A stretch of 64,000 nucleotides of DNA from an uncultured bacterium (GTDB lineage Bacteria > Patescibacteriota > Minisyncoccia > Phycocordibacterales > PALSA-1337): assembly GCA_963848635.1 (NCBI GenBank), contig CAWKEA010000005.1:257526-321525 (forward strand), read 5' to 3'. Shown here in pieces: positions 3,912-58,696 of the stretch. The notes beneath the pieces were generated by a model. It saw nothing but the letters and a program-made list of their open reading frames with translations. It did not search any database and was not told where the DNA came from. Both the position numbers and the translations under genes were made by a program. Within the stretch, counting starts at the first letter, position 1. The number at the start of each line of letters is the position of its first letter.

Positions 3912-4788
3912 ATTGTGTTTCGATAAATTTTCGAATATGCTCGTTCCCACGTAGCGAGCGGATTTCCCGCACTACGCGAGTCCAAAGTTTGCAAATTCAT
4001 AGTCTCTCGAACTGTCAACATCTTTTGTAATACCTTTTTCGTCAGATGCTCTTTGCTTTCACCAAGCGATCAATCTGGCAGAAAATCTCGCAAATTCTTT
4101 TGCTTTGAAGCAATTGAAAAGGATTTTTCTTGAAGAAAGGATGATTATTTTACCAAGATATCCTATTGAGAACTTACCGAGTAGCAATAACATTGGCAAT
4201 GATTGGCGCGTTCTTCTTTTTGAAAGTAACACTTCGCCGCATTTCAATGATAATTCTGTCACATCGTTCCAAAGATCTCCTTGTCCCTTTCCTGCATCTT
4301 CATAGTGGAGTCATTTGGACACTCGACTCCTCATGCGTTATAAAGAAGACTTCCGATATTGACATAGAAGCAACCTTCACCATCGATAAGTCCGACAACA
4401 TAATCTGTTTGACACCTTTGGATTTGTGTCCTTCCCATGCGCTTATTATATCAAATTAAGTTGACGCATAGTACTACGACTCAGCTGACTTCTACATAAA
4501 TTTAATTATACTTTATCATTTTTGATAACAACGCATCAGATCTCCCGGGTCATTCATTTTTCTGTTCCAACCATCCTAATCAAGGTTTTCAACGGAAATT
4601 TCCCCTGACTCACCGCCCTTAGTTGGAGTCGTCATCGCCTTCTTTCTATCGGGCTGCCCTTTGCATCCCGGATCCTCCGAACATCCCCTCGCGGAAGATG
4701 TACTATCCTTTCGCTACTACCGCACTCATAAATCACGGAATGGATTTTAACAGCTAGATGACACGACTGCCAAGCGCATTGCATTCTG
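3912..4788 (-). mobile_element. intron-like insertion in 16S rRNA (between the 1392 block GACGGGCGGT and GTACAAG...GAACGTATTCACCG), probably a group I intron with a degenerate LAGLIDADG homing endonuclease ORF
   Basis: The conserved 16S sequence stops after gacgggcggt(attgtg) at ~3912 and resumes at ~4788 with tgagtacaagacttgagaacgtattcaccg. The ~875 nt between have no 16S homology. A minus-strand mini-ORF in them encodes MGRTQIQRCQTDYVVGLIDGEGCFYVNIGSLLYNA*, which carries a LAGLIDADG motif. Confidence 0.7.
4330..4438 (-). pseudogene. degenerate LAGLIDADG homing endonuclease remnant (first LAGLIDADG motif, premature stop)
   Basis: Minus-strand translation gives ...DYVVGLIDGEGCFYVNIG...; VGLIDGEGCF matches the LAGLIDADG/LAGFIDGEG consensus. 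The ORF is only 35 aa before its stop. Confidence 0.55.
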
Positions 4789-5874
4789 AGTACAAGACTT
4801 GAGAACGTATTCACCGCAGCGTGCTGATCTGCGATTACTAGCGATTCCGGCTTCATGAGGTCGAGTTGCAGACCTCAATCCGAACTGGCGCATCCTTTAG
4901 AGGGTTGGCTCCGCCTTTTATCGGCTTGGCGTCCTTTTGTAGATGCGATTGTAACACGTGTGTAGCCCAGGGTATCAGAGGGCCATGCTGACTTGGCGTC
5001 ATCCTCGCCTTCCTCCCACGATTCTGCTCGATCAAGTCCAATCCTAAGTCATAAAGTCTTAAGTTCGCATTCTTGATTTACTTTATGAACTTCCGATTGA
5101 ATGCAATCAAAATCGTGGGCAGTCTCGCCTGACATATATAACAGGCAACGAGGGTTGCGTTCGTTACCCCACTTAAGGGAACAATTCAAACCACGAACTG
5201 ACGACAGCCATGCAGCACCTGTCTAACTGCCTTGCGGCGACCAAAGTTTCCTCTGGTCTTCAGCTAGATTTCTAACCCTGGTAAGGTTTTTCGTTTGTCG
5301 TCGAATTGAACCACATGTTCCACCGCTTGTGCAAGTCCCCGTCTATTTCTTTGAGTTTTAACCTTGCGGTCGTACTACCCAGGCGGATCTCTTAACGCGT
5401 TAGCTACGGCTCGAGGAGGGTCGATACTCCTCAAACCAAGAGATCATCGTTTAGGGCGTGGACTACTGGGGTATCTAATCCCATTCGCTACCCACGCTTT
5501 CGTGTTTCAGCGTCAAGAATGCTCCAGTCTCCTGCCTTCGCTTTTGGTGTTCCCCATGATATCAACGCATTTCACCGCTACACCATGAGTTCCAGAGACC
5601 CCTCGCATCTTCTAGCTATGCCGTTTCCCGCGCAGGTCCCCGGTTGAGCCGAAGAATTTAACGCGAGACTAACACAGCCGCCTACACACCCTTTACGCCC
5701 AATAATTCCGGATAACGCTTGAGGCACTCGTATTACCGCTGCTGCTGGCACGAGTTTAGCAACCTCTTATTCATGAGCTCTTCAATAAACTTAGTCGCTC
5801 ATAAAAGGTTTTTACGTACCGAAGTACTTCATCAACCACGCGGCGTCGCTCCGTCAGGCTTTCGCCCATTGCGG

Positions 5875-5905
<31 letters not shown>

Positions 5906-6457
5906 ATGGACCGTGTCTCAGTTCCATCGGTGGGGGTCAGCCTCTCAGCTCCCCTAGACGTCATAGCCTTGGTAGGCCGTTACCCTACCAACTAGCTGAT
6001 ATCGAAAAGGCCGTTCCAAGGGCGAAAAAACTTTACCCTTCAGCCTTGCGGCTTCAGGGACTATCGGGAATTATCTAACCTTTCGGCTAGTTATGCCCGA
6101 CCCTTGGGGACGTACCTGATTATTACTACCTCGTCTGCCGGTGACCCTTGCGGATCCCCTAGACTTGCATGCCTTATCCACGCCGCCAGCGTTCATCCTG
6201 AGCTAGAATCAAACTCTATCAATAAATGAACGGAACAAAAGAGAAAACGCAAATTCGGCTTGTCTGCCGTGAGGCAGACCTGTGCCGACTTTCATAATCG
6301 CCAATGATCACTGTTTATTGATATCGTCCCATCCAGCTCGTAAATTATCGTTTATTATTTGGACTTGCTTTTATCTCAATCTTTTTTCAAGATTGTGTGT
6401 GAATTTCAATTTTCTAAATTTTCAAAGGGCCCAGCCCCCGTTTGGGACATGGGATGT

Positions 6458-34592: not shown

Positions 34593-35189
34593 CTATAGAT
34601 GGCTCTCTGTCAGGCCTTTGTTTATGGCAAAGATAAGCTGCGGCACGAGCGGCTTTGCCGTGGCGACAAGATCGATATCCATCATCAAAGGAACGACCAA
34701 AGCCTCCGTCGTCGCGTCGGATTTTATGTAGCCGAGCGCGTAGAGGATGCGAAACACAGCCAACGTTTCGATCGCAGAGATGTCGATCTCTGATCTCTTT
34801 TCTTCGACGAGGAGGCGATGCAGACAAAAAAGCGTCATGAAGACCGGCTCGTTCTTTTCTTCGCCACGGACAAGACGGCGGATCAAGGACAGAACGCGCG
34901 CATATGCGGCCAAAGCTTCACCATTCGATTCTGCCGATTCGAGGGCCGTGATGCTTTCGATCTCTTCTGCTCCGACAAGCCTCCAAATATCTCTACCTTG
35001 CACAAGCGTAAAATCCCTCATAGAAAGATCCTGCGTATGATAGCGAAGCTTTGAGACAGAGTGGCGGACGCCCGCGGCCACTGCGGTGACCAAGCCAAAA
35101 TCTTCCGTATAGATGGACAATATCTTGTCCGCCTCGCGATAGGCCGAGGCGGAGACGATGAGCCCTCGGGTTGTGTATTTCTCGTGCAT
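34593..35189 (-). CDS. recO: DNA repair protein RecO (short form)
   Basis: TRGLIVSASAYREADKILSIYTEDFGLVTAVAAGVRHSVSKL matches the RecO N-terminal OB-fold pattern. Confidence 0.7.
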   Translation of the reverse strand: MHEKYTTRGLIVSASAYREADKILSIYTEDFGLVTAVAAGVRHSVSKLRYHTQDLSMRDFTLVQGRDIWRLVGAEEIESITALESAESNGEALAAYARVLSLIRRLVRGEEKNEPVFMTLFCLHRLLVEEKRSEIDISAIETLAVFRILYALGYIKSDATTEALVVPLMMDIDLVATAKPLVPQLIFAINKGLTESHL

Positions 35190-35197
35190 TGTTTGTC

Positions 35198-38100
35198 TTA
35201 TAAGACGAGGTCGAACTTGATGCCAGCTGTGGCATCAACTACTGCACCATTTACAACAATCTCAATATTCTTCAACAATACCGCCTTCACGAGCTCTTCC
35301 TTGTTCCTTTCGATGAAAGCCTCCCCCGCCTTGTCCGCGGCAAAGACCTTGAGGATCGGCCGATCCTGTATCGTGAGCTTTTGCTCCTTGCGCCTATCCT
35401 GGATGGCGCGCATGAGGTCGCGCAGTTCCCCTTCTTCTTTCAATTCAGGCGTTATGTTCAGATCAAGCTCAACTTCTGTGCTGATACTTCCATCAACAAC
35501 GACTTCCTTCACATTGACTTCTTCGTTGATCAAATCAAGCAAGTTTTTGTCTTCAATTTTGAACTTTGCATTTTGCACTTTCAATTTTGAGAGCGGCTGT
35601 CTGACGTTTATCTTTGCTTTTGAGCGAGCTTCGAGGCCAAGGGATGCTATGTCGCGGACAAGCTTCATATTCTCAATCAGATCTTTGTCGATTGCACTGA
35701 GAGCGGGCCAACTCTCGAGATGCACGCTTTCACGGCCGCCTTTCAGTCTCATGTAGACGTCTTCGGCAAGGAACGGCATGAACGGCGCTAGTAATTTTGA
35801 TACTTCAAGGAAAACGAGGCGCGTCGTTGCGAGAGCGGCCGACTTATCAGCTTCATCTTCCCCCTTGAACCTGTCTCGCGAGCGACGCAAATACCATGTA
35901 GAAAGGTCATCGATAAAATCTGCAAACGGCCTCGTCGCCTTGTCGAGCTCATATTTCTCCATTCCTTCAGTCACCTCCTTGTTCAATTCATTCAGGCGAG
36001 AGACGATCCATCGGTCAAGGATGTTTTTGCTTGCATCGCTTCGCGACGGAATGGTCTCGCTCACACGAAATTCTTCTGTTGAAGAATTTCTCCGTTCCGC
36101 GCCGTCGCGCTCCACGAGGTTCGCTCGACCCATTCCGGTCGCTTCGCCTGCATACAATTCATAGAACGTCACGACATTCAAAAGCCTGCCGATGTGCTTC
36201 TTGACCACTTCATCGACGCCCTTTTCTGAAAAACAGAATTCCTGGGCACGAACAGCAGGAGAAGACAAGAGATAGTAGCGCAAGGCATCGGCTCCATATT
36301 TCCGGACGACAGGCATGAGATCAGGGAAATTATTCTTTGATTTGGACATCTTTTGCCCGTCTTCAGCCAGAATGATGCCATTGACAACGACATTTTTATA
36401 TGGCGCTCGGCCAAAAAGCGCCGTACCGAGCACGATCATGCTATAGAACCATCCGCGCGTCTGATCGACACCTTCAGCAATGAAATCCGCAGGATATCCC
36501 CTACTTTTCCCCAACTTATCCCCAGTTATCTTTGCGAGGAATCCCCTCGCTGGATCGAATTCTTTTGTATCAAAAGGATAATGCGCCTCGCCGAACGGCA
36601 TCGAGCCTGATTCGAACCAGCAATCGAAGACTTCCTCGACGCGCTTTAGTTTTTCGCCGCCCGGCAGATGCAATTCGATATCATCGATGTATGGCCTGTG
36701 CAAATCGATCTCGAAATCGTCATTGTGCGGCAGTGGCACAAAATCGAGCTTTTCAGGAGCGGCGTTATCGAAATAATGGAGCTTGCGGTTTCTGAGATTG
36801 AGGGTCCCTTTGTCATCGAGCCCGAGCGAAACAGATGCCAGCATAAAAGCCGGCGCATCGTGAGTGACGATAAGGATGTTCTTGCCTACATACCTCCTCT
36901 CCATGTCATAGATAAAACTGCCGACCCGCTTTCGGATATCGGCGTAGTTCTCCCCCTTTGGAAGGCGAATAGAAAAGCGCTTCTCATGCGGGAAAGCTTC
37001 CATGAACTCATCGAATGGCTTGCCGTCATAGATGCCGGAATCCAATTCGTGAAGACGATCGTCGACGATGATATTTTTCTTCGGAAAATCCAGTCCAGCC
37101 GCAAGGATATCTGCAGTCTCTTTTGTGCGGACAAAAGGCGAGACAAAGATGATATCGATCTTCTTGTCGGCAAAGAATGCCGCCGCAGCCTTCACTTGCG
37201 CCTTTCCTTTCTCTGTCAGATGCTTTGGGTCGGTTGCTTTCGCGCTCATGACGCCGAGCGTGTTATTCTCCGCTTCGCCATGACGCATGATGTAGTAGGA
37301 GTTTTTGGCTTGCGAATGCTTCCTGAGGTCGTTGATCGAACCGAAGCAATGGATAGAGCCTGACTTTTCGCCGCGCCAGACCGGGATCGGAGCGCCCCAA
37401 AAACGCGAGCGGGAGATGGCCCAGTCGCGAGCTCCCGCGAGCCAGTTGCCGAAACGTCCTTCGCCGACTTCTGGCGGAGTCCAACTGACTTTGCCGTTCG
37501 CGGCAACGAGCTTGTCCTTGAAATCGCTGACGCGCACGAACCATGACGACGCGGCATAATTGAGGAGCGGCGTGTCGCAACGCCAACAATGCGGATACGA
37601 GTGCGTCATATTCTCCTTTGCAAAGAGAAGGCCTTTTTCTTGGAGCCACTGGATGACTTTTATATCCGTGCGCAAATGCGCGTCCTTGTCTTCCGGCGTA
37701 TCCTTTGGCTTTACTTTCAAACCTGAAAAATCAACGACTTCTTTTTTGAACGTGCCGTCGATATTGACGTGCTGAACGAACGGCAGATTTTCCTTTTGTC
37801 CGAGCGCATAGTCATCAGCGCCGAACGCAGGCGCGATATGGACGATGCCGGTGCCGTCGGTCGTCGTGACAAAATCGGCGGCATATACTTTCCAGCCGTT
37901 TTCGCGATTCTTGAGACTTGTGTCTTTTGAATAATAGTCAAAGAGGGGCACGTAGGATTTGCCGACGAGGTCGGAACCCTTCATCTCTGCGACGATTTCA
38001 TATGCTTCTTTTTTGAAAGTTGCCTCGAGCCTTTCTTTTGCACAAATATAAAAAACTTGATTCTCTCCGCCAACGACAACAGGAACACTTTTTCTACCCC

Positions 38101-39010
38101 CTTCGGTGGAGCGAAAAAGTTTCCTCTCGTCTTGTGTCGCGGCTGACGAAGCGTCCTGTGCCGGTGCATCATTTGAGCTTTCGATTTTTTGTTCAGGCCC
38201 TCCGACTTTCACTTTCACATAATCAATATCCTTGCCTACAGCCAATGCGACATTGCCGGGCAATGTCCACGGCGTCGTCGTCCATGCCAAGAGATACGTA
38301 CCTTCATCGTCCCCGTCTGCATCTTTGAGTTTTGAGTTTTGAGTTTTGAGCTCGAACTTCACATACACTGAAATGTCCTTTATGTCTTTATACCCCTGCG
38401 CGACCTCAAAATTCGATAGCGTCGTCTCGCAGTGCGGACAGATCTGCATCGGCTTGAAGCCCTCATAGACGAGCCCTTTTTCATGCAATTGCTTGAAAGC
38501 CCACCAGACGCTCTCGGTGTAGCTCGAGTTCATGGTCTCGTAATCGTTCTCCATGTCCGCCCAGCGGCCGAGTCGCGGGATGATCTCCTTCCAATCGTTG
38601 ACGTATCGGTGCACCGCTCTTCGAGCGGCAGAATTGAAATTTTTGATGCCAAAATCGATGATGTCTTTCTTGCTCTTGAGCCCGAGTTCCTTTTCAATCA
38701 GATTCTCGACCGGCAAGCCGTGACAATCCCAACCCCAGCGACGGCGCACGCTGTAGCCTTGCATCGTCTTGTAGCGAGGAACTGCGTCTTTTATCGAAGT
38801 CGGCAAAACGTGGCCAAAATGCGGCAATCCCGTAGCGAATGGCGGCCCGTCATAAAAGACGAACTTGCCGCGCGGAGCTTCCCTATCGACGCTTTTCTTA
38901 AAAATATCGTTCTCCTTCCAATATTTTAAAATGCGCTCTTCGCGCTCTTGTGCTGGCGTTTTTGCGACCACCTTGTCGCCAGTTTGGCCTGCATTCTGAT
39001 TTGTTGTCAT
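35198..39010 (-). CDS. ileS: isoleucyl-tRNA synthetase with a ~200-aa histidine-phosphatase (PGAM-like) domain inserted in place of the zinc-knuckle segment
   Basis: FYDGPPFATGLPHFGHVL (HIGH), GWDCHGLPVE, KMSKSKNN, and a C-terminal anticodon-binding domain. Residues ~565-765 read YYIMRHGEAENN...LTEKGKAQV...IIFVSPFVRTKETADIL...DDRLHELDSG...ILIVTHDA, matching histidine phosphatase branch-1 motifs. They lie between WRGEKSGSIHCFGSINDLRKHS and DLHRPYIDD...EVFDCWFESGSMP. Confidence 0.9.
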   Translation of the reverse strand: MTTNQNAGQTGDKVVAKTPAQEREERILKYWKENDIFKKSVDREAPRGKFVFYDGPPFATGLPHFGHVLPTSIKDAVPRYKTMQGYSVRRRWGWDCHGLPVENLIEKELGLKSKKDIIDFGIKNFNSAARRAVHRYVNDWKEIIPRLGRWADMENDYETMNSSYTESVWWAFKQLHEKGLVYEGFKPMQICPHCETTLSNFEVAQGYKDIKDISVYVKFELKTQNSKLKDADGDDEGTYLLAWTTTPWTLPGNVALAVGKDIDYVKVKVGGPEQKIESSNDAPAQDASSAATQDERKLFRSTEGGRKSVPVVVGGENQVFYICAKERLEATFKKEAYEIVAEMKGSDLVGKSYVPLFDYYSKDTSLKNRENGWKVYAADFVTTTDGTGIVHIAPAFGADDYALGQKENLPFVQHVNIDGTFKKEVVDFSGLKVKPKDTPEDKDAHLRTDIKVIQWLQEKGLLFAKENMTHSYPHCWRCDTPLLNYAASSWFVRVSDFKDKLVAANGKVSWTPPEVGEGRFGNWLAGARDWAISRSRFWGAPIPVWRGEKSGSIHCFGSINDLRKHSQAKNSYYIMRHGEAENNTLGVMSAKATDPKHLTEKGKAQVKAAAAFFADKKIDIIFVSPFVRTKETADILAAGLDFPKKNIIVDDRLHELDSGIYDGKPFDEFMEAFPHEKRFSIRLPKGENYADIRKRVGSFIYDMERRYVGKNILIVTHDAPAFMLASVSLGLDDKGTLNLRNRKLHYFDNAAPEKLDFVPLPHNDDFEIDLHRPYIDDIELHLPGGEKLKRVEEVFDCWFESGSMPFGEAHYPFDTKEFDPARGFLAKITGDKLGKSRGYPADFIAEGVDQTRGWFYSMIVLGTALFGRAPYKNVVVNGIILAEDGQKMSKSKNNFPDLMPVVRKYGADALRYYLLSSPAVRAQEFCFSEKGVDEVVKKHIGRLLNVVTFYELYAGEATGMGRANLVERDGAERRNSSTEEFRVSETIPSRSDASKNILDRWIVSRLNELNKEVTEGMEKYELDKATRPFADFIDDLSTWYLRRSRDRFKGEDEADKSAALATTRLVFLEVSKLLAPFMPFLAEDVYMRLKGGRESVHLESWPALSAIDKDLIENMKLVRDIASLGLEARSKAKINVRQPLSKLKVQNAKFKIEDKNLLDLINEEVNVKEVVVDGSISTEVELDLNITPELKEEGELRDLMRAIQDRRKEQKLTIQDRPILKVFAADKAGEAFIERNKEELVKAVLLKNIEIVVNGAVVDATAGIKFDLVL

Positions 39011-39119: not shown

Positions 39120-40910
39120 TTACATCCTCTCCGGCACTTGGATGCCGAGGAGGGTGAGACCGTTTGTCATAACGATAGAAAAGGCCTCGGTTAAAGCGAT
39201 CTTGTAGGGAGAATACGTGTCATCGGCCGAAATGATCTGATTGTTCGCATAATAGCTGTTGAATATGCCGGCGAGTTCAGTGAGGTATGTCGTGATGTAA
39301 TGCGGTTCGTATTCGCTCGCCGCGCGTTCGACTATCTCTGGAAGACGACAGAGCATCTTTTCGAGCTCATGGGCGGATTCGGTCGGCTTCTTGAATGATC
39401 CGATGACGCCTGCTTCCTCTGCTTTTCTCAAGATAGATTTCGCCCGCACAGCCGAATATTGCAGGTATGGGCCAGAGTCGCCTTCAAAGGAGATCGACTT
39501 GTCGAGATCGAATATGATGTCGTCTCCGCTCGATTGCCGGAGGATCGAATATTTTATGGCGCCTATCGCTATCTCTTCGCTTATTTTTGGCGCAAGGCTG
39601 ATGGCTCCGGCGTCTTTCTTGCCGAATCTCTCATCTATCGAATCTGTGACTTTTCCTATGAGAGACAGCGCCGTAACTACGTCTCCTGTACGAGATGACA
39701 TCTTGCCGGAAGGCAATCGAAGCATCCCGTGCGGGAGATGCCGGATGTTCGTCCCTTTTGAATCGCCTGCGACAAAGACTTTTCCGATAGCATCCAAAAG
39801 CACCTTGTAATAATCTTTTATCTCGTTTCCCGTGACGACCAACGACAGATCATAGGGATATTTTTTCCTCTTCATCTCGACCAGGCCGAGCTCTTTCGCT
39901 TCATAGGTCGGCAAGCCCTCCGAACTGATGAAAACGCGCGTATGCAGGCCTTTTTCCTCGTCGCCTTTGAAGACGACTGCTCCATCGCTCTTTTCGAATA
40001 TGCCGTTCTTTAGATTGTCTTCGACGATCTTCTTGCCGATAGGGCCCGCTTCGCTTTCAAAGAAAAAGAAGTCGTAGCTCGTGCCGAGCTTTTGATACAT
40101 CGCCGCGAAATATTCGAGCGAGACCTTCCTTCCGAACTCATATATGCTCTGGATTTCCGGATCCTCTTTCGAATATATCTTTTTATTTATCTCGATTATC
40201 TCTTTTTTTGATCTTTCGTCATTCTCGTAAGCACTGGCGCCTTTCGCATAATAACCGCCGAGCTCGGCGGCTGTGGCCTTTTTTTGCAGAGCTCCATTCT
40301 CGGTTTCAGCATGCGTCCATCCCCAGATCGCTTTCGCCACGTGCAGTCCGACATCTCCCTGATAGCACGCACGCATGACCTCCGCTCCGGAAAAAGCGAT
40401 GATACGCGCGACAGATTCGCCGATGGTGTCGCTCATAAGATGCCCGATATGGAATTCCTTGAACGGATTCGGGTCGGTATACTCGATCATGATCTTTTCA
40501 AGCTTAGCCCTCTTGAAAAAATCGTTCGAACCGAATTTTTCCTTTTCTTTCAAGACTTTGCCGACCTGTCCAGCAAAGAATCCCCTTTTGAGATGGAAGT
40601 TGATGAAACCCGGGCCAGCGATGTCTATCTTTTCGACTTCGTCGGGCTTTTTTTTATCGAGCTCTGCAACGAGCTTTTCCGCCAATTCGCGCGGCTTCAT
40701 CTTTACTATTTTTGAAAAGACGAGCGCGGCGTTCGTCGAATAATCGCCATGAGACAGATCATCTGGATGTTCAACGGCAAAATCGCCCTTCGCTATCTCA
40801 AGGCCCGAAAGTGCATCATCGACGGCTTTCTTCAAAATAGCTGATATCATGGCCATAGTGTAGCTTTTTTTTGCAAAAGATTCCACGAGATATCGGACAG
40901 CGTTTTCCAC
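39120..40910 (-). CDS. argS: arginyl-tRNA synthetase
   Basis: YTDPNPFKEFHIGHLMSDTIGESVARI (HIGH region), the ArgRS anticodon-binding DALR domain, and the typical ...RM C-terminus. Confidence 0.9.
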   Translation of the reverse strand: MENAVRYLVESFAKKSYTMAMISAILKKAVDDALSGLEIAKGDFAVEHPDDLSHGDYSTNAALVFSKIVKMKPRELAEKLVAELDKKKPDEVEKIDIAGPGFINFHLKRGFFAGQVGKVLKEKEKFGSNDFFKRAKLEKIMIEYTDPNPFKEFHIGHLMSDTIGESVARIIAFSGAEVMRACYQGDVGLHVAKAIWGWTHAETENGALQKKATAAELGGYYAKGASAYENDERSKKEIIEINKKIYSKEDPEIQSIYEFGRKVSLEYFAAMYQKLGTSYDFFFFESEAGPIGKKIVEDNLKNGIFEKSDGAVVFKGDEEKGLHTRVFISSEGLPTYEAKELGLVEMKRKKYPYDLSLVVTGNEIKDYYKVLLDAIGKVFVAGDSKGTNIRHLPHGMLRLPSGKMSSRTGDVVTALSLIGKVTDSIDERFGKKDAGAISLAPKISEEIAIGAIKYSILRQSSGDDIIFDLDKSISFEGDSGPYLQYSAVRAKSILRKAEEAGVIGSFKKPTESAHELEKMLCRLPEIVERAASEYEPHYITTYLTELAGIFNSYYANNQIISADDTYSPYKIALTEAFSIVMTNGLTLLGIQVPERM

Positions 40911-58152: not shown

Positions 58153-58624
58153 AAGCTTTGTGCTCTGCCAGTAGGCTGCACTCCGCTGTACTGTTTACCG
58201 TGGTATTATACCATACCTATATAATTAAAGTCAATAGCGACAGAAAACAGCCCCCGGATGTGCGTAGTGTGTCCGATTCGAAGAGATTTTCCGCTACCTG
58301 CGTATACCAGTCTTTCTTAGAAAATTACCCACTAGGGTGAAAGAAACTGCATAGACAACAAACAAGACTATTTTCAACGGATACCAAAAAGAACACGACC
58401 ATTGAGCAGGCGTCCGACACTTCAATGCACGAAGTTGTTAAGGATTTGATAAAACTTTCAGAACTACTGAAACACGGCTCTACATATTACGAATTGGCTA
58501 ATTCCAGAGAAAAAGAGGAAATTATGAGAATAATCTTTTCAGAACTTTCTGTTTCCGGAAATATCCTTACGTACAAATGTAAAAACGGCTTCAAGGCTCT
58601 AGAAAGTCGTTTTAATCATTCTTG

Positions 58625-58696
58625 TATCCCCACGTGGAATCGAACCACGATCTCGAGCTTCGGAGGCCCGCGCTCTATCCGTTGAGCTATGAGGAC
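58625..58696 (-). tRNA. tRNA-Arg (anticodon CCG)
   Basis: Reverse complement gives GTCCTCA-TA-GCTC-AACGGATA-GAGC-G-CGGGC-CTCCGAA-GCTCG-AGAT-CGTGG-TTCGATT-CCACG-TGGGGAT-A. The acceptor stem pairs 7 of 7 (2 GU), the T-loop is TTCGATT, the anticodon loop CT-CCG-AA. No encoded CCA. Confidence 0.85.

Follow-up and report, generated by a model that had tools for sequence, protein, structure and literature searches.

A 64,000-nucleotide stretch of contig CAWKEA010000005.1 (assembly GCA_963848635.1, positions 257,526 to 321,525 of the forward strand), from an uncultured bacterium of the Patescibacteriota, was analyzed and is referred to here as the window. On its minus strand lies ileS, a gene for an isoleucyl-tRNA synthetase (IleRS) that contains, in frame and inside its catalytic body, a complete histidine-phosphatase domain. 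The gene is flanked by argS upstream and a recO-like gene downstream (Table 1).

An IleRS with a nested histidine-phosphatase domain

The full-length protein scored 870 bits against TIGR00392, the ileS equivalog model, above the cut-off of 621.4, identifying it as an IleRS. NCBIfam matches of the MupA/MupB-like kind showed that it resembles the eukaryote-like, mupirocin-resistant type, and its nearest PDB sequences were the human, yeast and Candida cytosolic IleRSs, P. megaterium IleRS2 and T. thermophilus IleRS. Pfam domains followed one another in the order tRNA-synt_1 in two stretches, with His_Phos_1 between them, then Anticodon_1 and DUF5915. The editing-domain His/Asp motif GIVHIAPAFGADD (aa 388-400) is present and is invariant or almost so among the 120 closest homologues. 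With the HIGH, KMSKS and editing motifs all intact, the host synthetase looks functional.

Alignment to human and yeast IleRS delimited the insert to 198 amino acids, aa 571-768 (window 36707-37300, minus strand). Pfam His_Phos_1 (PF00300) matched aa 573-737 of the full protein with E = 1.1e-33, and matched the excised 200 amino acids alone with E = 7.6e-35. The scores obtained for the insert, 117-121 bits against a gathering threshold of 21.7, place it within this family.

Nine positions of the insert were invariant across the 120 homologues: R576, H577, G578, N583, R628, E655, E687, R695 and H717. Together they make up the full catalytic set of branch-1 histidine phosphatases and a GES...R motif of the family, and the catalytic residues were almost invariant in the 30 most divergent representatives as well. 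The insert was 196-206 amino acids long in every one of the 120 sequences, without gaps, and its mean conservation of 0.67 was comparable to the 0.65 of the anticodon-binding region. Within the close clade the insert and the host IleRS co-diverge (r = 0.85), and the GC content of the insert (0.503) is the same as that of the remaining gene, with no compositional break. Judged by its residues, the phosphatase domain looks catalytically competent.

Table 1 Coordinates of the nested phosphatase, the host synthetase and the neighboring genes in the window.
Feature	Window position	Strand	Basis and remarks
Histidine-phosphatase (branch 1) core, aa 571-756	36743..37300	-	PF00300, AlphaFold2, Foldseek; stand-alone relatives map to aa 568-756
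RHG motif: R576, nucleophile H577, G578	37277..37285	-	120/120 conserved
R628, phosphate-pocket Arg (SPFvRT motif)	37127..37129	-	120/120 conserved
E655, presumed proton-donor Glu (LHELDSG)	37046..37048	-	120/120 conserved; aligns with the Glu of PspA 'ieidhG'
H717, second catalytic His (VTHD)	36860..36862	-	120/120 conserved
CP3 N-terminal half, aa 541-570, PIPVWRGEKSGSIHCFGSINDLRKHSQAKN	37301..37390	-	aligns to human 496/yeast 495; CxxC ligands absent
Connector FVPLPHNDDFEI, aa 757-768, leads the chain back to CP3	36707..36742	-	specific to the nested form
CP3 C-terminal half, aa 769-795, DLHRPYIDDIELHLPGGEKLKRVEEVF	36626..36706	-	aligns from human 498/yeast 499; second CxxC lost
ileS open reading frame, type-2 (eukaryote-like) IleRS with nested phosphatase	35198..39010	-	1270 aa, uninterrupted
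HIGH signature, HFGH, aa 64-67	38810..38821	-	H64 and G66 invariant, H67 at least 90% (120 homologues)
CP1 editing threonine-rich motif WTTTPWTLPGN, aa 243-253	38252..38284	-	invariant (120 homologues)
KMSKS signature, aa 887-891	36338..36352	-	K887 and K890 invariant (120 homologues)
Anticodon-binding domain PF08264, aa 999-1142, followed by DUF5915 C-terminal region	35585..36016	-	Pfam
argS, upstream neighbor	39120..40910	-	open reading frame; ArgRS tblastn matches in adjacent-form loci
recO-like gene, downstream neighbor	34593..35189	-	open reading frame; RecO_N/RecO_C genes downstream of ileS in related loci

AlphaFold2, run with an alignment on aa 566-772, returned a model with a predicted local distance difference test score (pLDDT) of 95.5 and a predicted TM-score (pTM) of 0.91. 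The near-full-length model was mediocre (pLDDT 76.5, pTM 0.66), and the insert was its most confident part, in blocks of 90-97. On these models the insert is predicted to fold autonomously. Foldseek retrieved PspA (4ij5/4ij6), HFP (9mmh) and PhoE (1h2e) for the insert, with probability 1.00 and a TM-score of about 0.75. The structural neighbors, which also include GpgP and CobC, are compact phosphatases of about 200 amino acids and not the longer mutases, and a sequence search of the PDB agreed. The insert carries a net charge of about -2 (family mean -1.7); binding of tRNA through charge, considered as a candidate property, finds no support in a domain that is slightly acidic. No second copy of the phosphatase was found in the window.

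These results bear out most of the first-pass annotation of this DNA, which had been made from the sequence alone. It had proposed a branch-1 histidine-phosphatase domain in frame inside IleRS, and the strong PF00300 match, the invariant catalytic residues and the predicted fold of the domain's own agree; the reading frame is uninterrupted over 1270 amino acids, as it had stated. The span it gave, 36718-37318 (aa 565-765), was right to within 11-18 nucleotides, and the motifs it named, RHGEAENN, SPFVRTKETA, LHELDSG and VTHDA, are all present. Its suggested checks included a comparison with histidine-phosphatase hidden Markov models, which gave the match to PF00300; structure prediction, which gave an autonomous domain; and a survey of orthologues, which recovered the same in-frame insertion in more than 200 independent assemblies, a recurrence that stands in for the read support it had asked for at both junctions.

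Recurrence of the insertion in Patescibacteria

The 120 closest homologues were drawn from a 5.8-billion-protein collection, and all of them combine PF00300 with IleRS domains, at 55-73% identity and lengths of 1143-1440 amino acids. They come from NCBI, JGI, ENA and Logan assemblies, and the named ones are Patescibacteria, Parcubacteria or Paceibacterota metagenome-assembled genomes (MAGs). A pattern scan in which each GTDB species was represented by a single genome gave 485 stretches encoding a relative of the insert; the counts given here for GTDB nested loci refer to the best 80 of these 485. All 80 belong to Patescibacteria (Taylor-, Nomura- and Campbellbacteria, Parcubacteria, Paceibacterota), and in every one the domain stands in frame within a reading frame of IleRS length, 58 of these frames being complete at 1130-1269 amino acids. 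An apparent case of an ileS split at the junction (locus L067) was an artefact of a scaffold gap of 10 Ns. Since identical in-frame junctions recur in 120 homologue clusters from four sources and in 80 GTDB genomes, with conserved residues flanking both junctions and no break in composition, we reject with near certainty the explanation that an assembly chimera or a frameshift artefact joined an IleRS gene to a phosphatase gene.

Copy number varies among the relatives. Four IleRSs (P0174, P0180, P0190 and P0252) hold two to four His_Phos domains per polypeptide, one location being CP3 and the other preceding the anticodon-binding domain. A separate observation concerns the relative P0211 (locus L095, 6001-9201), in which the domain of a REP-associated tyrosine transposase (RAYT/IS200-like) is nested in CP1 (NF047646, 81.3 bits, cut-off 80) and which also carries a His_Phos domain in CP3 and a C-terminal GNAT domain. 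Its gene could be degenerate or mis-assembled. It lies in another neighborhood, with ProRS and RidA, and its context was set aside as uninformative for the question of synteny.

The insertion site in CP3

CP3 comprises residues 459-526 of yeast IleRS and 473-534 of Candida IleRS; it is a peripheral subdomain whose topology varies among IleRSs and which holds a zinc motif in T. thermophilus (PMC7955072, PMC7191050). In our alignments, aa 570 and 769 of the window protein pair with residues 496 and 498 of human IleRS, and aa 569 and 769 with residues 495 and 499 of the yeast enzyme, with nothing replaced. Together with the published limits of CP3, these positions place the insertion point in the middle of this subdomain.

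In many relatives a CxxC pair directly follows the 'PIPxW' strand and a second follows 'DLHRPxID', so that the phosphatase stands between the two halves of a zinc knuckle. Both CxxC pairs were kept in 6/6 insert-less relatives, in 10/24 divergent nested sequences and in 19/80 GTDB nested loci. Both were lost in the window protein, in 117 of its 119 close relatives and in 47/80 GTDB nested loci, and in none of six adjacent-form IleRSs, those encoded next to a stand-alone phosphatase gene. Knuckle and phosphatase coexist in other lineages. The retention of the knuckle in insert-less forms, and its loss in most nested lineages, suggests that the inserted domain took over the stabilizing role of the knuckle. 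It had earlier been proposed that the phosphatase replaces the zinc knuckle. The cysteines are indeed gone in the clade of the window, but the segment from PIP to DLHR persists on both sides of the phosphatase and can be aligned with its eukaryotic counterpart, and to that extent the proposal needs amendment.

After the phosphatase core the chain returns to CP3 through a connector, in which F757, P759, P761, H762, N763 and E767 were each conserved at 90% or more in 149 nested sequences and were absent from stand-alone proteins. The connector was modelled with high pLDDT.

A stand-alone phosphatase gene beside insert-less ileS

The insert was searched against 1.84 billion representative proteins and the top 150 matches were classified. 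Both IleRS flanks were present in 65, a further 33 were IleRS fragments, 5 were multi-copy forms and about 47 had no flanks. Most of the flankless matches were genuine proteins of about 190 amino acids, with 35-44% identity to the insert. They form a large family in Patescibacteria, for example in Ca. Staskawiczbacteria, whose members bear no annotation more specific than 'histidine phosphatase family protein' or 'PhoE'. Stand-alone and nested phosphatases have their catalytic core positions in common. They differ close to the active site, where the stand-alone proteins have an 'SSWPE' loop, with conservation of 90% or more, that the nested domains have not kept.

Genomic context was then taken for ten stand-alone proteins, and nine of the genes lay in the neighborhood of ileS. 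In seven loci the gene immediately precedes an insert-less ileS of the same orientation, from which it is separated by 1-119 nucleotides, in the order argS-phosphatase-ileS-(x)-recO; the IleRSs encoded there are 931-962 amino acids long where complete. One gene is adjacent to ileS in convergent orientation, and in one locus a CYTH gene separates the phosphatase from ileS; the tenth is taken up below. In the insert-less IleRSs, the residues that flank the insert of the window protein stand two codons apart. The adjacency of a phosphatase gene to insert-less ileS in relatives indicates that the association of the two enzymes is older than the fusion.

In the window, a spacer of 109 nucleotides separates argS from ileS at the place where relatives hold the stand-alone phosphatase gene. 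The 80 GTDB nested loci each contain exactly one phosphatase-like segment, and a RecO tblastn match was found in 69 of them. In about half of the nested loci with argS visible, argS abuts ileS without room for another gene. The nested and adjacent arrangements are mutually exclusive in this sample.

Two further observations concern the stand-alone loci, where additional genes for phosphohydrolases or nucleotide hydrolases occur. The CYTH (triphosphate tunnel) gene between the stand-alone phosphatase and ileS occupies L094 5070-5660. A Staskawiczbacteria genome (L091/L092) has two genes upstream of argS, one for a HIT protein and one for a Y1 transposase of the IS200-like type, at 56-505 and 1398-1904.

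Comparison with known synthetases and phosphatases

The window protein shares with the structurally characterized type-2 IleRSs (P. megaterium IleRS2, 8c8u; T. thermophilus, 1ile; yeast/human, 7d5c and 9w01) the class Ia layout of HIGH, CP core, CP1, CP2, CP3, KMSKS, anticodon-binding domain and DUF5915-type C-terminus. These structures match it at E = 1e-187 to 1e-202, and the CP3 zinc motif seen in its relatives is T. thermophilus-like. Unlike them, the window protein has an additional 198-amino-acid enzymatic domain in the middle of CP3, lacks the CP3 zinc ligands and carries three more lineage-specific insertions, at aa 266-320, about 817-835 and 956-995.

The first of these is a low-complexity insertion, KVKVGGPEQKIESSNDAPAQDASSAATQDERKLF..., in the CP1 editing domain (window 38051-38215, minus strand). 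Most relatives lack it or differ there (gap frequency 0.79), and a pLDDT below 50 predicts disorder. The second insertion, about 17 amino acids long, is the segment DPARGFLAKITGDKLGKSRG (window ~36506-36562, minus strand), recognized by comparison with human and yeast IleRS; it lies just after DCWFESGSMP, and the surrounding aa ~796-855 were modelled with low confidence. The third is a variable, disordered segment of about 40 amino acids (window 36026-36145, minus strand) between the KMSKS region and the anticodon-binding domain, at the site where the relatives P0180 and P0190 (1419 aa) hold a second His_Phos domain. The insertions at aa 266-320 and 956-995 are gappy and unconserved across the family alignment, in contrast to the phosphatase insert.

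With the compact phosphatases (PspA, 4ij5; PhoE/YhfR, 1h2e/1ebb; HFP of the riboflavin pathway, 9mmh; GpgP Rv2419c, 4pz9; CobC, 6nru) the insert shares an alpha/beta fold (TM-score about 0.75, root-mean-square deviation 2.4-3.1 Å), the RHG...R...E...H set and a length of about 190-200 amino acids without mutase-type insertions. It differs in sequence (19-26% identity), in not being a free protein and in its extra C-terminal connector. PspA is the closest solved structure, at 25-26% identity. The closest free relatives are the phosphatases encoded next to ileS (such as P0205 and P0375), at 35-44% identity, with the same core positions and within the same argS...ileS...recO locus; these are polypeptides of their own, stop about 12 residues sooner, have the 'SSWPE' loop and evolve more slowly.

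A curated precedent for a bacterial IleRS with an extra enzymatic domain is NF040702, in which the additional domain is an N-acetyltransferase of the GNAT type and not a His_Phos domain. The window protein does not belong to that family, scoring 337 bits against 1999 and having no acetyltransferase match in Pfam. Branch-1 phosphatases fused to a second enzyme are likewise found in PFK-2/FBPase-2 (1bif) and in the Rv2228c-type RNase H/acid phosphatase (NF005567), the latter being the best NCBIfam match to the insert at 87 bits. Those proteins are end-to-end fusions with other partners, whereas the domain in the window is nested in a loop of its partner. The UNE-L domain of LARS1 docks on CP3 of human IARS1 (PMC13439101). 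The same CP3 surface attaches a module in both systems, the human attachment being non-covalent, vertebrate-specific and without catalysis.

Other features of the window

A complete bacterial 16S rRNA gene without insertions lies at window 4739-6224 (minus strand, 1247 bits). Neither a 23S nor a 5S gene accompanies it anywhere in these 64 kb, which makes the rRNA genes unlinked. The window has a single tRNA gene, tRNA-Arg(CCG), at 58624-58696 (minus strand).

Interpretation of the nested enzyme

We consider it probable that the protein is bifunctional, a working type-2 IleRS with a competent nested phosphatase that derives from the gene neighboring ileS and acts on a small phosphomonoester. 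We infer that both activities are real, that the module came from the neighbor gene, that the two proteins cooperate and that the substrate is a small molecule. In the proposed model, a compact PhoE/PspA-like phosphatase of about 190 amino acids would be nested in a surface loop of CP3. The chain would enter and leave it at two close points in mid-CP3, between the original halves of the zinc knuckle, and the phosphatase would fold on its own before the chain returns through the conserved 12-residue connector. Nesting would thereby give a covalent form to a partnership of neighboring genes in which the free phosphatase may have docked non-covalently on CP3, and the phosphatase, tethered to IleRS, would hydrolyse a small phosphomonoester through a phospho-His577 intermediate. 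A small phosphomonoester is the most likely type of substrate in view of the fold class, to which broad metabolite phosphatases belong, the slight acidity of the domain and its variable copy number and position. Adjacency alone says little about shared function: synteny is just as strong for argS and recO, which have no functional link. That the association persists in two forms which exclude each other, that the connector is conserved and that the knuckle has been lost point jointly to something beyond accident.

Several observations weigh against this reading. No NCBIfam equivalog cut-off was reached by the insert or by its stand-alone relatives, GpmB being among the families tried. For the insert, the scores were 21 bits against 81.7 (TIGR01258) and 81.5 against 225 (NF038349) for dPGM, 74 against 350 for PspA (NF045917), 83.7 against 162.9 for the alpha-ribazole phosphatase CobC (TIGR03162), and 42.9 against 74.5, over the N-terminal part only, for the phosphohistidine phosphatase SixA (TIGR00249); the substrate is therefore not readable from homology. 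The tenth stand-alone gene, on a 3-kb contig, is not near ileS. A tree of the IleRS backbone (41 taxa, 892 columns, insert columns removed, 200 bootstraps) showed adjacent and nested IleRSs interspersed, with a clean split in 0/200 bootstraps. The nested domains also evolve faster than the stand-alone proteins, which, together with their differing loop near the active site, means that the function may have shifted. Finally, adjacency may explain only how the fusion arose and not why it was kept.

On the same backbone tree, at least four changes of state were needed in 197/200 bootstraps, and two pairings across the forms were well supported: the adjacent IleRS of L093 with the nested P0141 (100%), and the adjacent IleRS of L084 with the nested P0170 (82%). 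The phosphatases follow form, and not the backbone, in their identities, with 48% between adjacent forms, 36% between adjacent and nested forms and 34-36% between nested forms at similar IleRS divergence. A tree of the phosphatase domain was star-like and uninformative on monophyly. All nested forms share the same site and the same connector. Three histories are possibilities: repeated, independent nesting of a slowly evolving neighbor gene, with evolution speeding up after each event; a single nesting, carried from one ileS allele to another by recombination in the strongly conserved flanks, after which the redundant neighbor was lost; or an artefact of the tree.

A stricter form of cooperation, which we think unlikely, would make IleRS and the phosphatase an obligate unit. 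Nesting would then reproduce the docking of the free phosphatase on CP3, and the phosphatase would act on a product of IleRS or on something presented to it. A tRNA end or a synthetase bearing a phosphate, or a by-product or inhibitor that contains one, would be candidate targets. Either the neighbor gene would have been nested more than once, or the nested segment would have spread by recombination. If true, this would be a natural, repeated case of a domain insertion that arose when a synthetase gene captured its neighbor.

The tethered phosphatase might instead act on a macromolecule of translation, a proposal to which we give a similarly low probability. Its substrate would be a terminal 3'- or 5'-phosphate on damaged tRNA-Ile, removed ahead of charging, or an inhibitory phosphorylation of the synthetase, the latter as an in-cis counter to Hip-type kinase toxins, which act on aminoacyl-tRNA synthetases. 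HipA-GltX and HipT-TrpS are precedents for such kinases. The association with ileS has been kept in two structural forms across deep divergence, and the connector, being conserved and well ordered, suggests that the phosphatase has a set geometry with respect to IleRS; against such a precisely positioned active site stands the variation in copy number (1-4) and insertion site among some relatives. Protein phosphatases (SixA, PGAM5, Sts-1) do belong to the superfamily, as does a CobC-like domain in fusion with RNase H, and the best NCBIfam match, NF005567, is itself a bifunctional RNase H/acid phosphatase. CP3 begins next to the CP2-3 linker, a segment lining the pocket for the tRNA CCA end (PMC7955072). 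The phosphatase domain, however, is not basic and has no evident tie to tRNA chemistry, and its surroundings showed neither a kinase nor a toxin as partner.

Somewhat more doubtful is a non-enzymatic domain with a structural or regulatory role, either stabilizing CP3 now that the knuckle is gone or tuning IleRS through a bound phosphorylated ligand. The loss of the knuckle cysteines in most nested forms and in 0/6 adjacent forms is in keeping with it, as are the faster evolution of the nested domains and the disappearance of the 'SSWPE' loop. The catalytic residues are nevertheless invariant in 120/120 sequences, including the proton-donor Glu that mere phosphate binding would not need, which makes a purely structural role unlikely.

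That the insert is a selfish or neutral passenger, intein-like or delivered by a transposon and of no benefit to the cell, is very improbable. The scattered distribution of the nested state on the IleRS tree, with its four or more changes of state, would fit such an element, as would the IS200/RAYT-type genes in the neighborhood and the one relative with a RAYT domain nested in the same IleRS. Pfam, however, found no Hint, homing-endonuclease or transposase domain in the window protein, whose junctions read ...AKN|SYY... and ...FEI|DLH..., and an intein is not indicated. The constant length of the insert, its invariant catalytic residues, its host-like GC content and its co-divergence with IleRS (r = 0.85) also speak against a passenger, and the upstream copy is absent wherever the nested copy is present.

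Novelty and significance

Full-text literature searches found no paper on an IleRS, or on any aminoacyl-tRNA synthetase, with a histidine-phosphatase domain. The first-pass annotation had called the architecture not known, which is right as far as papers go and too strong for the databases: the architecture is common among public MAG proteins, and the combination of PF00133 and PF00300 already appears in Pfam lists. NCBI names the homologues 'class I tRNA ligase family protein' or 'hypothetical protein', and JGI names them isoleucyl-tRNA synthetase. The vague naming at NCBI, possibly a consequence of the insertion, leaves the essential ileS under-annotated in many Patescibacteria MAGs.

Extra domains of aminoacyl-tRNA synthetases are mostly non-catalytic and mostly eukaryotic. 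Here, a complete second enzyme is nested in the catalytic body of an essential bacterial synthetase, and it has persisted over long evolutionary time in organisms whose genomes rank among the smallest known and normally shed sequence of no use. The neighbor gene in sister lineages and the lack of co-occurrence of the two forms provide two independent lines of evidence for an undescribed partnership. The family thus offers a tractable natural system for the origin of domain insertions, for the role of a synthetase-tethered phosphatase and for the replacement of a zinc knuckle's structural role by an insert.

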